Below are positions 55,444 to 59,785 of a DNA stretch of 64,000 nucleotides, in pieces. Within the stretch, counting starts at the first letter, position 1, and each line of letters opens with the position of its first letter. Under the pieces are notes generated by a model that had not been told where the DNA came from, did no database searches, and saw only the letters and a program-made list of their open reading frames with translations. Position numbers and translations under genes: made by a program. The DNA comes from Candidatus Nanoarchaeia archaeon (lineage in GTDB: Archaea; Nanobdellota; Nanobdellia; SCGC-AAA011-G17; JACPNG01): positions 21,812 through 85,811 of the forward strand of contig JAQTMK010000002.1 in the NCBI GenBank assembly GCA_028714375.1, in the 5' to 3' direction.

Positions 55444-57231
55444 ATGAAAGCGGTAATCCTTGCAGGAGGGGAAACTATTAAAGAAAGAGGTAGAGAAATC
55501 CCTATAAGTCTAGTTGAAATCAATGGCAAAAAATTTTTAGAATATCAGATTACTTTATTAAAAAATAATTTCATTAATGAAATAATTTTATGTGTAAATT
55601 CCAAAAAAGAGATTGAAGATTATTTTGGGGATGGTTCAAGATTCGGAGTTAAGATCCACTATTCAGAAGAACCCACAGCATTAGGTACTGCAGGAGCAAT
55701 AAAAAAAGTATCATCTTTGATTGGAAATGAATCTTTTATAATTTTAAACGGAGATGTTTATATTCAGGATGGATTAGGAGAATTAATAATAAAACATAAA
55801 GAAAACAAAGAAAAGGAAAACATAATTCTAACAGTAAGCTATGTCCAGGTAGAAAATAGCAAAGCTTTGATGGCTGGATTAATAGATTCTAAGTATATAA
55901 TCAAAAGTTTACTAAAAGGAATAAACACGGAAGATCTAACAAATTCCGGAGTTTATATTGCAGAACCTTCTCTTCTTTCGTTCATCAGAGAAGATGAAAA
56001 AGTCTCATTGGAAAATCAGATATTTCCAATGTTGTATGAAAAAAAACTGGTAAATGGAGAAATGTTATATCCCAATTATTTTACAGACATAGGAACAATC
56101 GAAAGATTAAAAGGATTTAGAGAATATATTAAATGTCCAACAAAATCTATCCCAGTAGCAGAAATTTCTTTAGATGGAAATGAATTAAAATATATGAATG
56201 ATTGTTTAAACACAAATTGGATATCTTCTGCAGGAGAATATATCCGAAGATTTGAAGAAGAATTTGCAGAATTTTGTGACTGCAAACATGGAGTTGCAGT
56301 AAATAACGGAACCTCAGCCTTGCAGCTTGCTTTGGCCACCATTGGAATCAAAGAGGGGGATGAAGTTATTATTCCATCCCTGACATTTATAGCAACTGCA
56401 AATGCGGTTAGATATTGTAATGCTACCCCAATATTGGTAGATTCTGACAAAGAGACCTGGAATATGGACCCAAAGAAAATAGAAGAAAGGATTACTCCAA
56501 AAACTAAAGCAATCATCCCAGTTCATCTTTATGGGAATCCCTGTGATATGGAGTCTATAATTAATCTTGCAAGCAAGTATGGGTTATATATAATTGAAGA
56601 TTCTGCAGAAGCCCATGGTGCAGAGTTTATGGGAAGAAAAGCAGGGTCATTAAGCCATATTTCGTGTTTTAGTTTCTATGGGAATAAAATCATAACTACC
56701 GGAGAAGGTGGGATGTGTTTGACAAATAGTGAAGAACTTGCAGAAAGAATGAAATATCTAAGAGATCATGGTATGAAAAAAGAAAAAAGATACTGGCATG
56801 ATGAAATCGGATTCAATTTCAGGATGACTAATATGCAGGCAGCAATCGGTCTTGCCCAATTGGAAAAAATAAAAGAATTGATTAACCGGAAAATAAAAAA
56901 TGCCAATCACTATAATCAAAACTTAAAAGGAATAAATGGAATAACCTTACCTCCAACAACCAAAAATTCAAAAAATGTGTTTTGGATGTATACGATTTTA
57001 ATCGAGGATGATTTTCCATTATCAAAAGAAGAGCTTACGAGAAAATTAAAAGAACATGGAGTTGATACAAGACCAGCATTCTATCCTTTAAATCAGATGC
57101 CTCCCTATAAAACTCCTGAGTCCTTCCCGATTGCAGAAGAAATCTCAAGAAAAGGCTTAACACTTCCATCTTCAATTAAATTGACTGAAGAACAGATCAA
57201 TTATATCTGTAATATTATAAAAAACATTTAA
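55444..57231 (+). CDS. Bifunctional fusion: sugar-1-phosphate nucleotidyltransferase (N-terminal) and DegT/DnrJ/EryC1/StrS PLP-dependent sugar aminotransferase (C-terminal)
   Basis: N-terminus MKAVILAGGETIKERGRE...GTAGAIKK (NTP-transferase G-loop). C-terminal half NWISSAGEYIRRFEEEFAEF ... FSFYGNKIITTGEGG ... LRDHGM (DegT-family with the PLP-lysine). Confidence 0.8.
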   Translation: MKAVILAGGETIKERGREIPISLVEINGKKFLEYQITLLKNNFINEIILCVNSKKEIEDYFGDGSRFGVKIHYSEEPTALGTAGAIKKVSSLIGNESFIILNGDVYIQDGLGELIIKHKENKEKENIILTVSYVQVENSKALMAGLIDSKYIIKSLLKGINTEDLTNSGVYIAEPSLLSFIREDEKVSLENQIFPMLYEKKLVNGEMLYPNYFTDIGTIERLKGFREYIKCPTKSIPVAEISLDGNELKYMNDCLNTNWISSAGEYIRRFEEEFAEFCDCKHGVAVNNGTSALQLALATIGIKEGDEVIIPSLTFIATANAVRYCNATPILVDSDKETWNMDPKKIEERITPKTKAIIPVHLYGNPCDMESIINLASKYGLYIIEDSAEAHGAEFMGRKAGSLSHISCFSFYGNKIITTGEGGMCLTNSEELAERMKYLRDHGMKKEKRYWHDEIGFNFRMTNMQAAIGLAQLEKIKELINRKIKNANHYNQNLKGINGITLPPTTKNSKNVFWMYTILIEDDFPLSKEELTRKLKEHGVDTRPAFYPLNQMPPYKTPESFPIAEEISRKGLTLPSSIKLTEEQINYICNIIKNI

Positions 57232-57232
57232 A

Positions 57233-58300
57233 ATGCCGATTGTAATCCAAAAATATAAACATCCGTATAGTTTTGATGATATATTTATCTCTTTTCATGG
57301 TATATTTTATGACTATTCATCCAAACTTATTAAAAAAATAAAAGAATATTATCCTGAACATAATGTATATCTTACAAATAAAGGGCGAGAATCTCTTAAT
57401 TTAATATTAAAAAATTTAAATTTAAATGAAGGAGATGAAGTTGCAATTCCCTGCAATGTTTGCGAAGTTGTAGTTGAAACTATTCTTCATAACAGATTAA
57501 AACCCTTAATTATAGACATAACCAACAATTTAACACTAGACCCAAAAGATTTAATGAAGAAAAAAACAGATAAAACCAGAGCAGTGATAGTAGTTCATCA
57601 GTTTGGTAATGTTGCAGATTTGGATGAAATAAAAAAATCAAAATTAATAACTATAGAGGATTGTGCTCAAACAATAAATGCAAAATACAAGGATAAACTA
57701 GTGGGAAACTATTCAGATTATGCTTTTAACAGCTTAGATATAACAAAACCTATTTCAGCGATTTCTGGTTCAATTTTAATCTCAAAAAAACCGATTCATT
57801 ATAACCTTAAAAAAAACGTTGGATTAAATAATCTAGTAGAATTAATTCTATTTATGGTCCTAAACAACAAACTAATTTACAACCTAATTACGAAAAAGTT
57901 TATAACAAATCTTAAACAAAAACAAACTCTTAAATTTAAAATAAAAAACAAAGCCATGTCCAAAATAAGCATTGCTTTAGCATACTCCCAATATAAAAAA
58001 TATGAAAAAAAAGAAGATTATTCATCTAAACTCCTTAATTCTATTAGGGGTCTAATGGTTTATTCTGAGAATAATAACCATAAAAAGCCATCATATACAT
58101 TTATCCCCGTAAAATTAAATGGAAGTAAACTATCTGGTAAAATAGATCTTCCACAACCAAGTTGTCCTCTTATTTATATAGAAAAGTATAAAAACTATAT
58201 ATCTCCCTGTCCAAACACCGAAAACCTATATAAAGAACTTACACTAATACCAACACACACAAATATATCAAATATAAAATGGGAAAAATATATCATCTAA
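57233..58300 (+). CDS. Divergent DegT-like aminotransferase-fold protein (possibly non-canonical or inactive)
   Basis: Weak similarity to the DegT family (GDEVAIPCNVCEVVVETI ... AVIVVHQFGNVADLDEI) but no convincing PLP-lysine context. Confidence 0.35.
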   Translation: MPIVIQKYKHPYSFDDIFISFHGIFYDYSSKLIKKIKEYYPEHNVYLTNKGRESLNLILKNLNLNEGDEVAIPCNVCEVVVETILHNRLKPLIIDITNNLTLDPKDLMKKKTDKTRAVIVVHQFGNVADLDEIKKSKLITIEDCAQTINAKYKDKLVGNYSDYAFNSLDITKPISAISGSILISKKPIHYNLKKNVGLNNLVELILFMVLNNKLIYNLITKKFITNLKQKQTLKFKIKNKAMSKISIALAYSQYKKYEKKEDYSSKLLNSIRGLMVYSENNNHKKPSYTFIPVKLNGSKLSGKIDLPQPSCPLIYIEKYKNYISPCPNTENLYKELTLIPTHTNISNIKWEKYII

Positions 58301-58761
58301 TAAAAGAAATAGCAAGACTAATTGCAAATCATTCTATTGGTAACACTTTAAGAAAAACATTTTTGAGAATCTCCGGAGTCAAGATTGGTAAAAAAGTGTT
58401 TACAAATCAAGGACTTGTCATTGTTGATAATGGGAAAAGGAATATGGTTATCTTAGAAGATTATGTAACTTTGGCTCCCCGGGTTACAATTGTTACCAGA
58501 TCCTCACCATATCACATCCATCCATCCCTTAGAAAAGAAGACCTCCCAATAAAAGAAGCCAGGGTAGTCATTGGAGAAGGTACATGGATAGGTACAAATG
58601 TAACAATCTTACCGGGGGTAAAAATAGGGAAATGTTGTGTTATTGGGGCAAATTCTTTAGTAACAAAAGACATACCAGAATATAGCATTGCAATAGGTAT
58701 TCCTGCAAAACCAATAAAAAATCTAAAAGATGAAAATAATAAACTTAGACAAAGAAAATGA
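58279..58761 (+). CDS. Left-handed beta-helix (hexapeptide-repeat) sugar acetyltransferase
   Basis: Hexapeptide repeats IGEGTWIGTNVTILPGVKIGKCCVIGANSLV, as in WbbJ/Mac/NeuD-like acetyltransferases. Confidence 0.8.
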   Translation: MGKIYHLIKEIARLIANHSIGNTLRKTFLRISGVKIGKKVFTNQGLVIVDNGKRNMVILEDYVTLAPRVTIVTRSSPYHIHPSLRKEDLPIKEARVVIGEGTWIGTNVTILPGVKIGKCCVIGANSLVTKDIPEYSIAIGIPAKPIKNLKDENNKLRQRK

Positions 58762-59785
58762 AACTGCATGGAATGATTATATCAAAAAAAATTCCCAATC
58801 TTCTATCTTTCATACTCTTGAATGGAAACAAATAATTGAAGAAACTTATAAGTTTAAGCCACTTTATTTTCTAGCAGTCGAGAACAATGAAGTAAGGGGG
58901 ATAATCTGTTCCTTTCTAACATCTAGTTTAATTTTTGGTAAAAAAATAGTTTCAACACCATTCAATTTCTACAATCAACCTTTATTTGAAGATCAAGAGG
59001 CAGGAAATCTATTAATAAATAAACTAAAAGAGATTGGGTTAAAGGAAAAAGTAAAGTACATTGAATTAAAAACGTTGGAGGATTTAAACATCCAGAATCC
59101 TGAATTACAAAAACATCCCCATTATTTTATCTCTAACCTGAAACTTGAAGATACTGAAGAGGAGATAGAATCAAAATATTACAACAGATTAAGGAAAAAT
59201 CTAAGAACCTTAAAAAGAAATGCTGAAAAAAACAATATTAAAATAAGTTTTTCTGATGATGATAAAGATCTAAAACAATTCTACAATGTTTTAGTTAAAA
59301 TATACCGGGATAAGCACAATATGATATGCCAACCTTACGTACTCTACAAGAATATGAAGGAAAATTTTAAAGGAAATTTTAGATTATTAATAGCAAAGAA
59401 AGATAACAAAGTAATTGCTGGTATGATTCTATTATTTTTTAAGGATCAAGCGGTTTATGCATATGGGGCCTCTGATCTAAATTATAAAATCCTAAGTCCA
59501 GGAACCATACTAATAGATCATGCAATAAAATTCTGTTCTAAGAACCATTATAAAACTCTTGATTTTGGAGTAACAAGCCAATACCAAACAGAATTGTTAA
59601 ATTTCAAACAAAATTGGGGCACAACAGAACATAAAATGCCTTATTATTATATCCCAATAACTCAAAAAGAGATTAATCCTCCAGATTATTACACTTATAT
59701 GAAAAACCTTAGAAAACCTTTTAAGTATGTCCCAATTCCACTTATTAAAATGGCATCGCCAATCATCACAAGGCAGTTAGGTTAA
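58730..59785 (+). CDS. FemAB-family / GNAT-fold (Acetyltransf_6-like) acyl- or aminoacyl-transferase
   Basis: N-terminus WNDYIKKNSQSSIFHTLEWKQIIEETYKF and a size of about 350 aa are typical of FemAB/FemX-like proteins found in polysaccharide loci. Confidence 0.6.
   Translation: MKIINLDKENETAWNDYIKKNSQSSIFHTLEWKQIIEETYKFKPLYFLAVENNEVRGIICSFLTSSLIFGKKIVSTPFNFYNQPLFEDQEAGNLLINKLKEIGLKEKVKYIELKTLEDLNIQNPELQKHPHYFISNLKLEDTEEEIESKYYNRLRKNLRTLKRNAEKNNIKISFSDDDKDLKQFYNVLVKIYRDKHNMICQPYVLYKNMKENFKGNFRLLIAKKDNKVIAGMILLFFKDQAVYAYGASDLNYKILSPGTILIDHAIKFCSKNHYKTLDFGVTSQYQTELLNFKQNWGTTEHKMPYYYIPITQKEINPPDYYTYMKNLRKPFKYVPIPLIKMASPIITRQLG

Follow-up and report, generated by a model that had tools for sequence, protein, structure and literature searches.

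The DNA analysed here, hereafter the window, is a 64-kb stretch (64,000 nt, G+C ~30%) of the 154,785-nt contig JAQTMK010000002.1 from a metagenome-assembled genome (MAG) of Candidatus Nanoarchaeia. At 55444–59785 its plus strand carries four open reading frames (ORFs), whose products are MDD5331735.1 to MDD5331738.1 at NCBI. ORF1 (55444–57231, 595 aa) fuses an NTP_transferase domain to a DegT_DnrJ_EryC1 aminotransferase; ORF2 (57233–58300, 355 aa) is a divergent, intact DegT-family aminotransferase that we call DegT-like2; ORF3 (58279–58761, 160 aa) is a left-handed β-helix acetyltransferase of the Hexapep class; and ORF4 (58730–59785, 351 aa) is a Fem-like protein, a FemX-fold double-GNAT transferase with matches to PF13480 and PF02388. 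The junctions are, in order, a 1-nt gap, a 22-nt overlap and a 32-nt overlap. The ORFs lie exactly where the first-pass annotation of this DNA, made from the sequence alone, placed them, and all four match the families predicted there in domain searches with hidden Markov models (HMMs), at values far beyond chance. The unit extends beyond these four genes, all of them real. A fifth gene in the same direction, separated from ORF4 by 1 nt (59787–60491, plus strand; PF00535, 1e-28), encodes a family 2 glycosyltransferase (GT2) resembling polyprenyl-phosphate sugar synthases (DPM1/ArnC/AglJ/PpgS), and the module continues to a multi-pass, GT-C-like PTPS_related membrane protein (60474–61955, minus strand; PF10131, 2.9e-12, 46.3 bits against a cut-off of 26.4). 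We propose, with modest confidence, that this conserved DPANN operon, divergent from the oligosaccharyltransferase gene aglB, builds and delivers an N-acylated amino sugar whose acyl group is most likely an amino acid.

The fusion in ORF1 is genuine. Residues 2–222 match NTP_transferase PF00483 (5e-21, 75.8 bits against a cut-off of 21.2) and residues 244–592 match DegT_DnrJ_EryC1 PF01041 (9e-133, 443 bits). The nucleotidyltransferase-like domain (residues 1–222, nt 55444–56109) is joined to the aminotransferase domain (nt 56173–57231) by an in-frame linker (residues 223–243, nt 56110–56172). The Logan assembly of run SRR22315509 (L016) equals the window over 11,987 nt and holds the 595-aa ORF whole. 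Two orthologs of ~72% identity from other MAGs (P0002 at locus L003 and P0003 at locus L001) keep the two-domain architecture, and each was recovered from a second assembly too. The linker is thus in frame in all three divergent orthologs, in two assemblies of each, despite many substitutions, which rules out an assembly artefact, a chance ORF or a frameshift at the junction. Judged from identities among the three orthologs of 66–74% in the N-terminal domain and 73–77% in the aminotransferase domain, both domains of the fusion are under constraint. Only the three related MAGs of this small clade carry it. In more distant versions of the operon the aminotransferase stands alone, with no nucleotidyltransferase domain nearby, and BLAST of seven non-fusion loci for the nucleotidyltransferase as a separate gene gave zero matches.

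Relatives of the aminotransferase domain point to a particular chemistry. Its best solved relative is the GDP-perosamine synthase Per of Caulobacter (3DR7/3BN1, 384 bits) and its best NCBIfam match is LegC (TIGR04181, 389.5 bits, under the cut-off of 420 though close), against at most 228 bits for other characterised types (3-aminotransferases and UDP-sugar enzymes). The pyridoxal phosphate (PLP) lysine K415 (nt 56686–56688, within SFYGNKIITTGEGG) and the cofactor-binding Asp386 (within IIEDSAEAHG) are both present. Per and LegC aminate C4 of GDP-4-keto-6-deoxy sugars, and placement of the ORF1 domain in this group of C4-aminotransferases is supported by these sequence comparisons. It differs from Per and LegC in being fused to a nucleotidyltransferase-like domain, in its sub-threshold LegC score and in the lack of a GMD-type (GDP-mannose 4,6-dehydratase) or LegB-type dehydratase in the window.

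The fused N-terminal domain has as its nearest NCBIfams MurU (2.5e-30), mannose-1-phosphate guanylyltransferase (5.7e-28) and HddC (1e-21), two guanylyltransferases being among its nearest families. Where solved enzymes read GGFGTRLRPLTLSFPKP, AGKGTRVRPITYTIPKP or AGKGERMRPLTLHTPKP, ORF1 reads GGETIKER--GREIPIS, and the canonical loop GxG(T/E)R.RP.T...PKP is altered in all three orthologs (GGETIKER..PIS, GGQKIKDK..PSP and GSKKIKDN..PSP), with a two-residue deletion and loss of the PKP lysine. The first-pass assignment as a sugar-1-phosphate nucleotidyltransferase therefore stands at the level of the PF00483 match, but catalytic activity is uncertain, as the canonical GxGTR...PK signature is lacking. 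The domain could be an inactive nucleotidyltransferase with an NDP-sugar-binding or regulatory role, tethered to the aminotransferase in the manner of GMPPA, a catalytically inactive subunit. This possibility is a substantial one, given that all more distant versions of the module operate without the domain, but on balance we doubt it: the domain is nearly as conserved as the aminotransferase, it retains Asp104 (NGD), Asp215 (DIGT), Lys158 and an invariant Lys13, and the lysine that replaces the loop arginine could still bind phosphate.

ORF2 had been described as a degenerate DegT paralog, a description that does not hold. Pfam DegT matches it at 4e-26 over profile positions 23–192 only, because a ~60-residue insertion separates its two domains. 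With the family profile, solved enzymes are matched over both domains, and the model (predicted local distance difference test score, pLDDT, 87) superposes over its full length on sugar aminotransferases in Foldseek at template modelling (TM) scores of 0.70–0.76. In the family alignment D143, S167 and K172 (the Schiff-base PLP lysine, nt 57746–57748) are invariant and pair with the equivalent residues of the ORF1 aminotransferase domain; the protein has an SGR motif. The best characterised matches of the family profile are C3-aminotransferases (QdtB, 227 bits; WlaRG, 201), with Per at 187 bits, a modest margin. DegT-like2 is thus an intact, divergent aminotransferase with a complete two-domain fold, of a conserved and probably active subfamily, and it is the most constant partner of the Fem-like gene.

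The product of ORF3 matches Hexapep at 1.3e-12. LacA/Maa-type O-acetyltransferases are its closest relatives (LacA 1KQA, 8e-21), ahead of the N-acetyltransferases WlbB (2e-10) and PerB (3e-8). LacA His115, which we take to be the catalytic base, falls on Ser76 in an alignment that pairs LacA G114-H115-P116 with ORF3 S75-S76-P77. The nearby His81 is conserved in DPANN copies only, and the IHP motif was rejected as a LacA-type catalytic histidine. Acetylation of an amine needs no catalytic base, so the loss of the base at Ser76 would fit a base-independent N-acetyltransferase. Of the N-acetylated sugar predicted by the first-pass annotation, the β-helix acetyltransferase is confirmed; its assignment to N-acetylation is not, the nearest class being O-acetyltransferases, yet the Ser76 substitution is compatible with it. 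Two antisense ORFs, of 146 aa in the fusion gene (56076–56516, minus strand) and 85 aa in the hexapeptide gene (58512–58769, minus strand), are most likely spurious products of AT-rich sequence.

For ORF4, domain, profile, fold and catalytic-residue comparisons agree on the FemAB-like assignment. It matches Acetyltransf_6 PF13480 (2.3e-14, 54.2 bits against a cut-off of 22) and FemAB PF02388 (5.7e-10, 39 bits against 24). Its AlphaFold2 model (pLDDT 93, predicted TM score 0.90) places two tandem GNAT domains as in FemX. In Foldseek the FemX of Weissella viridescens (FemX_Wv) is matched with E 2e-15 and TM 0.70–0.74, and all of the top 11 matches, namely Weissella FemX, FemX and FemA of S. aureus, Sbb17 and Sba18, are aminoacyl-tRNA-dependent transferases. 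The Sbb17 and Sba18 structures, solved with the amino-sugar compound streptothrisamine, align to the ORF4 model with TM 0.62–0.77. CoA-dependent tandem GNATs rank below these 11 (TM 0.38–0.57). A profile of 30 Fem-like family members matches FemX at 2e-11 to 4e-11 and aligns F292 and K293 of ORF4 to Phe304 and Lys305 of FemX_Wv. K293 (nt 59606–59608) is invariant in 30 of 30 family sequences, the Methanolobus and L015 homologs described below retain the Lys/Phe motif, and we regard K293 as the candidate catalytic lysine.

With FemX_Wv and the S. aureus FemX and FemA, ORF4 shares Pfam families, a double-GNAT fold without coiled-coil insert, the Lys/Phe pair and the lack of an acyl-CoA motif. 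It differs from FemABX in its low identity to the solved enzymes (11–15%), in an archaeal host without peptidoglycan, in partners that are sugar aminotransferases, an acetyltransferase, a GT2 and AglB instead of Mur genes, and in a Gln (Gln201) at FemX Arg211, which we take to be an acceptor-binding residue. The last change would fit an acceptor other than a peptidoglycan precursor. The best NCBIfam match, over the full length, is TIGR03019 (1.1e-38, 133.1 bits), the uncharacterised 'FemAB family XrtA/PEP-CTERM' of exopolysaccharide (EPS) loci. Length (~345 aa) and occurrence in polysaccharide loci are common to both, and ORF4 and the TIGR03019 proteins belong to one large family, but ORF4 scores below the cut-off of 260.35 and XrtA-type proteins pair with a deacetylase, not with a DegT protein. 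By its modelled fold ORF4 is a FemX-type transferase, distinct from the peptidoglycan Fem enzymes and below the TIGR03019 cut-off.

We infer that aminoacyl-tRNA would be the donor. Outside translation, aminoacyl-tRNA is known to serve in the building of peptidoglycan cross-bridges, in the aminoacylation of lipids and in the synthesis of a few antibiotics. The acceptor of FemX_Wv is also linked to a nucleotide sugar, being UDP-N-acetylmuramic acid-pentapeptide (PMC12945691), and Orf11, Sbb17 and Sba18 catalyse Gly-tRNA-dependent aminoacylation of the amino sugar of streptothrisamine at a free amine (PMC12945691; PDB 9wqw–9wqy). These last enzymes resemble ORF4 in their Fem-like fold (TMt 0.75–0.77), and their acceptor chemistry is that proposed for ORF4; they differ in length (~290–310 residues), in serving Streptomyces secondary metabolism and not glycan assembly, and in a profile E-value of 0.005. 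The basic isoelectric point of the Fem-like family (8.5–9.7) was rejected as evidence of tRNA binding, since a comparable basicity is shared by most proteins of this AT-rich organism. ORF4 has a conserved basic helix at residues 152–167, and FemX a tRNA-binding helix. Genes for tRNA-Arg(TCT), tRNA-Cys(GCA) and tRNA-Ser(TGA) lie in the window at 7153–7301 and 9749–9834, ~46 kb from the operon, and the surroundings of the Fem-like gene show no hint of a tRNA dedicated to a role outside translation.

ORF4 might instead be an ordinary tandem-GNAT N-acyltransferase that draws on acetyl-CoA, another acyl-CoA, an acyl carrier or an adenylate and makes a simple N-acyl amino sugar. Public annotation by PGAP takes this course in naming it a 'GNAT family N-acetyltransferase'; there are significant fold matches to VipF, a glucosamine N-acetyltransferase and a clavulanate tandem GNAT, and the bacterial locus L015 has a CapK-type adenylating enzyme and a second Acetyltransf_6 gene. 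We nevertheless consider it unlikely. All eleven tRNA-dependent enzymes outrank the CoA-dependent GNATs, which have lower TM scores, the [QR]xxGx[GA] motif that binds the pyrophosphate of acyl-CoA is absent in 28 of 30 family members, and the Fem catalytic Lys and Phe are invariant. The operon already has a separate acetyltransferase, and Pfam scans and locus comparison found no ATP-grasp enzyme, AMP-ligase or other acyl-activating enzyme and no carrier protein in the DPANN module.

Comparison with other genomes shows that these genes travel together. The order Per-like DegT, DegT-like2, Hexapep, Fem-like, GT2, PTPS_related membrane protein and 451-aa membrane protein recurs in three DPANN loci (L006, L011 and L012) at 31–60% identity, and L005 and L008 hold rearranged versions. 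In the window the last of these genes (62014–63369, plus strand) has no Pfam match; its orthologs accompany the module in several DPANN loci, with 35–36% identity in L006, L011 and L012. The PF10131 protein is conserved in six loci (31–38% identity) and the GT2 in L006, L011, L012, L005, L008 and L007. One species, represented by L007 and L013, has the module without the hexapeptide gene and with NeuB, a GMD-like dehydratase and a NUDIX hydrolase. AglB/STT3 itself (52702–55323, minus strand; STT3 5.8e-18, STT3-PglB_core 1.6e-6) is encoded divergently from the operon, an arrangement also found in L001, L003, L006 and L011. Downstream of it, at 47892–52667 on the minus strand, Pfam matches identify an initiating GT4-family polyprenyl-phosphate HexNAc-1-phosphate transferase (51663–52667), a flippase (50431–51675), a GT2 (49740–50438), a PF01522 polysaccharide deacetylase (48961–49785) and a GT1 (47892–48980); L003 and L006 have the same set. 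The entire 15–64 kb region of the window is a glycosylation island.

At 40% identity or more the Fem-like clade comprises ~28 clusters, all named members of which are DPANN archaea, and an exhaustive profile search of the wider family returned 2,366 cluster representatives at E ≤ 1e-30, whose neighbourhoods were compared for sampled members. The cultured methanogen Methanolobus psychrotolerans (L014) has a Fem-like gene, a DegT-like2-type aminotransferase and a Hexapep gene, in that order, and in the bacterial EPS locus L015 the Fem-like homolog is accompanied by a deacetylase, a Per-like DegT and a Hexapep gene. Haladaptatus salinisoli and the Vibrio XrtA/PEP-CTERM loci have no DegT there, and their Fem-like gene directly follows the gene of a polysaccharide deacetylase. 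The Fem-like gene thus always adjoins an enzyme that creates a free sugar amine, either DegT-like2 or a deacetylase, which gives independent comparative support for the Fem-like protein as an N-acylating enzyme on sugar amines. An exosortase/archaeosortase-family gene (L014 2263–3090, minus strand) adjoins the Methanolobus triad and recalls the XrtA association of the bacterial TIGR03019 proteins; the ORFs scanned in the window gave no match to an exosortase domain.

The same comparison raises the question of which amine is acylated. Instead of an NDP-amino sugar made by DegT enzymes, the acceptor could be lipid-linked GlcN or GalN whose amine the PF01522 deacetylase of the divergent operon has exposed; parallels would be the action of S. 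aureus FemX on lipid II, or unmasking of the ArnD/PpgS type. The Haladaptatus and Vibrio loci speak for this, as do the PF01522 deacetylases of the window, L003 and L006 and that of L015. In the DPANN/Methanolobus branch, however, the tight and often overlapping partner is DegT-like2, and no deacetylase was found in the examined parts of L005, L008, L011, L012, L007 and L014, where the flanks are limited. We regard a lipid-linked acceptor as rather unlikely.

Delivery of the sugar is addressed by the last genes of the module. The NCBIfam matches of the GT2 are ArnC (2.5e-15), AglJ (1.3e-11) and PpgS (6e-5), all below cut-offs, and HHpred has grouped PF10131 with GT-C glycosyltransferases (PMC7801869). 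Together, the resemblance of the GT2 to polyprenyl-phosphate enzymes and this GT-C grouping suggest that the product may be loaded on dolichyl phosphate and transferred outside the cell.

The amino-sugar branch predicted by the first-pass annotation lies, as expected, within a glycosylation island, but its dideoxy part is not borne out, since the 4,6-dehydratase that it requires and that was to be sought elsewhere was not found in the 64 kb. Pfam scans of essentially all ORFs of at least 110 aa detected no SDR-type (short-chain dehydrogenase/reductase) dehydratase, oxidoreductase, ketoisomerase, NeuB or CMP-transferase in the window. The 3.4 kb beyond it held no keto-forming enzyme either, and tblastn of the window with the GMD-like, second SDR, NeuB and NUDIX proteins of relatives returned nothing. 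A 313-aa ORF (30233–31174) that was checked as a keto-forming candidate against Pfam and the PDB stayed unassigned. Near the module, two relatives carry a gene whose product has an N-terminus characteristic of GDP-mannose 4,6-dehydratase, which makes a GDP-mannose to GDP-perosamine-type route plausible by analogy. A few genes downstream of the module, three loci share an FAD amine-oxidase/NAD_binding_8 oxidoreductase (L016 12807–14060, L001 15020 to the end, and L006 16412–17653).

It is highly improbable that the genes of the window serve a nonulosonic acid pathway of the legionaminic-acid type whose product bears an N-aminoacyl group, as Leg5Ac7Ala of E. coli O161 does. LegC is the best NCBIfam match of the ORF1 aminotransferase domain, the gene set parallels the predicted Lea2 aminotransferase, Lea3 alanyltransferase and Lea6 nucleotidyltransferase (PMC7685785), and the L007/L013 sublineage has NeuB, a dehydratase and a NUDIX hydrolase around its Fem-like/DegT-like pair, but no NeuB-type synthase, hydrolysing 2-epimerase/NUDIX enzyme, CMP-transferase or dehydratase was found in the window, the LegC score is below its cut-off, and the co-conserved dolichyl-phosphate-type GT2 and GT-C protein indicate a hexose-level sugar. 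The Woesearchaeota locus L007 (6971–15029, the same species as L013 4965–13023) itself encodes NeuB, a metallophosphoesterase, DegT-like2, the Fem-like protein, a GT2-CBS protein, a GMD-like dehydratase, a NUDIX hydrolase and a Per-like aminotransferase; to judge by these genes, a GDP-6-deoxyhexose precursor could be converted there to a nonulosonic acid that possibly carries an N-aminoacyl group.

What the analysis shows are the genes and their synteny, the fusion in ORF1, the folds and the conserved residues; from these we infer the following substrates, order of steps, tRNA dependence and dolichol route. A nucleotide-activated keto-sugar, probably GDP-linked and formed by an enzyme encoded outside the window, would gain an amino group at C4 through the perosamine-synthase/LegC-like domain of ORF1, while the fused nucleotidyltransferase-like domain would make or bind the NDP-sugar. 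DegT-like2 would supply the amine or a second amine. The FemX-fold enzyme would then move an aminoacyl group from aminoacyl-tRNA to the free sugar amine by way of Lys293. The hexapeptide enzyme may acetylate a hydroxyl or an amine of the sugar, or the α-amine of the new aminoacyl residue; the last would give N-acetyl-aminoacyl amides as in bacterial O antigens (PMC7685785). The GT2 would load the finished sugar onto dolichyl phosphate and, after flipping, the GT-C-like membrane protein would pass it to a cell-surface glycan.

Several observations weigh against this pathway. The keto-sugar-forming enzyme was not found in the 64 kb or the 3.4 kb beyond. The nucleotidyltransferase signature is altered, two aminotransferases are present and the need for both is unexplained, and the GT2 scores far under every equivalog cut-off. 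The dependence of ORF4 on tRNA rests on homology at 11–15% identity to the solved Fem enzymes, its site has diverged (FemX Arg211 is Gln201, although FemX Pro212 is kept as P202), and the basic isoelectric point of its family is uninformative in this organism.

Known systems offer partial parallels to the proposed pathway. The Arn route (ArnB/ArnC/ArnD/ArnT) and the mycobacterial PpgS/Rv3779 route use the same enzyme classes and logic, and those classes are present and co-conserved here (DegT, an N-acyl step, a polyprenyl-phosphate-type GT2 with a sub-cut-off match, a PF01522 de-N-acylase and a GT-C protein). The resemblance is at the level of class, with equivalog scores far below cut-offs; the module has no formyltransferase or decarboxylase, and here the lipid would be dolichol and the target an archaeal surface glycan. 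The 'peptidylamido-sugar' locus for type B flagellin in Clostridioides difficile encodes the FemAB-superfamily protein CDR20291_0244 and the FdtB-like CDR20291_0247 (PMC5207246). It likewise places a Fem-superfamily gene and a DegT-family aminotransferase in a protein-glycosylation locus, but it is bacterial and O-linked and also has an ATP-grasp enzyme, and its Fem-like gene is implicated genetically in a putative role, attempts to obtain mutants having failed. This locus and Orf11/Sbb17 are the nearest functional precedents. In the literature searched we found no report of a tRNA-dependent or Fem-like step in archaeal glycan biosynthesis, and, beyond the leads cited here, no characterised polysaccharide Fem-like enzyme in work on archaeal glycosylation, O-antigen loci, PEP-CTERM systems and the family of the Lea3 alanyltransferase.

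Other genes of the window add to the picture of the island. Interspersed among its glycosyltransferases are five B12-binding radical SAM genes (17899–19320 and 22675–24138, minus strand; 33634–35163, 35165–36595 and 45097–46416, plus strand), and one plain radical SAM and one radical SAM-SPASM gene (24172–25305, plus strand, and 43263–44324, minus strand). So many cobalamin-type radical SAM genes are unusual in a glycan locus and hint at C-methylation or other radical chemistry on sugars. Radical SAM genes lie beside the module in relatives too (L001, L003, L008 and L016). Consecutive genes for a NodU/CmcH-type carbamoyltransferase (28483–30246, plus strand), the 313-aa ORF mentioned above (plus strand) and an SGNH/AlgX-like protein (31381–32457, plus strand) suggest, through the first and the last, carbamoyl and acetyl decoration of the glycan. 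A stand-alone LPG_synthase_TM protein (21788–22678, minus strand) adjoins a CDP-alcohol phosphatidyltransferase (21109–21804, minus strand), and L007 has a comparable gene (5988–6935) immediately upstream of NeuB. LPG_synthase_TM is the membrane domain of MprF-type enzymes, and the protein might flip a charged lipid-linked intermediate.

The archaeal window also has two genes of the heptosyltransferase family GT9 (32475–33593 and 40454–41569, plus strand), a family best known from the core of bacterial lipopolysaccharide. Inside the island lie QueC (7-cyano-7-deazaguanine synthase; 37726–38445, minus strand) and a nucleoside 2-deoxyribosyltransferase-like gene (39986–40459, minus strand). At 13991–15265 (minus strand) one ORF joins a domain of the purine/uridine phosphorylase family (PNP_UDP_1) and a phosphoribosyltransferase domain. 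Two predicted proteins (4804–5823, plus strand, and 8443–9639, minus strand) have a Kazal-type protease-inhibitor domain and a lamin-tail domain, both uncommon in archaea; they may be surface or host-interaction proteins.

Beyond this operon, we tentatively suggest, as something a little short of an even bet, that the large family of Fem-like proteins of ~345 residues serves generally to attach amino acids from aminoacyl-tRNA to free amines on glycan sugars. Such amines would be made by DegT enzymes or by de-N-acetylases in bacterial EPS/PEP-CTERM loci, haloarchaea, methanogens and DPANN archaea; in the present case the aminoacylated sugar would pass to dolichyl phosphate and on to surface glycans next to AglB. 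The idea is testable in cultured carriers, namely with the triad of Methanolobus psychrotolerans (WP_094229079.1) and the pair of Haladaptatus salinisoli (WP_227356812.1). The nucleotidyltransferase–aminotransferase fusion, with its altered catalytic loop and its occurrence in three related MAGs, is a smaller curiosity. E. coli O antigens contain amide-linked amino acids and N-acetyl-amino acids (PMC7685785), and, if true, the proposal would supply a genetic explanation for the amide-linked amino acids of prokaryotic polysaccharides such as bacterial O antigens and exopolysaccharides. It would give a function to thousands of proteins annotated merely as 'GNAT family N-acetyltransferase'. It would also describe the first tRNA-dependent step of archaeal glycan biosynthesis and a new branch of surface-glycan chemistry in the poorly known DPANN archaea, whose surfaces mediate their symbiotic lifestyle.

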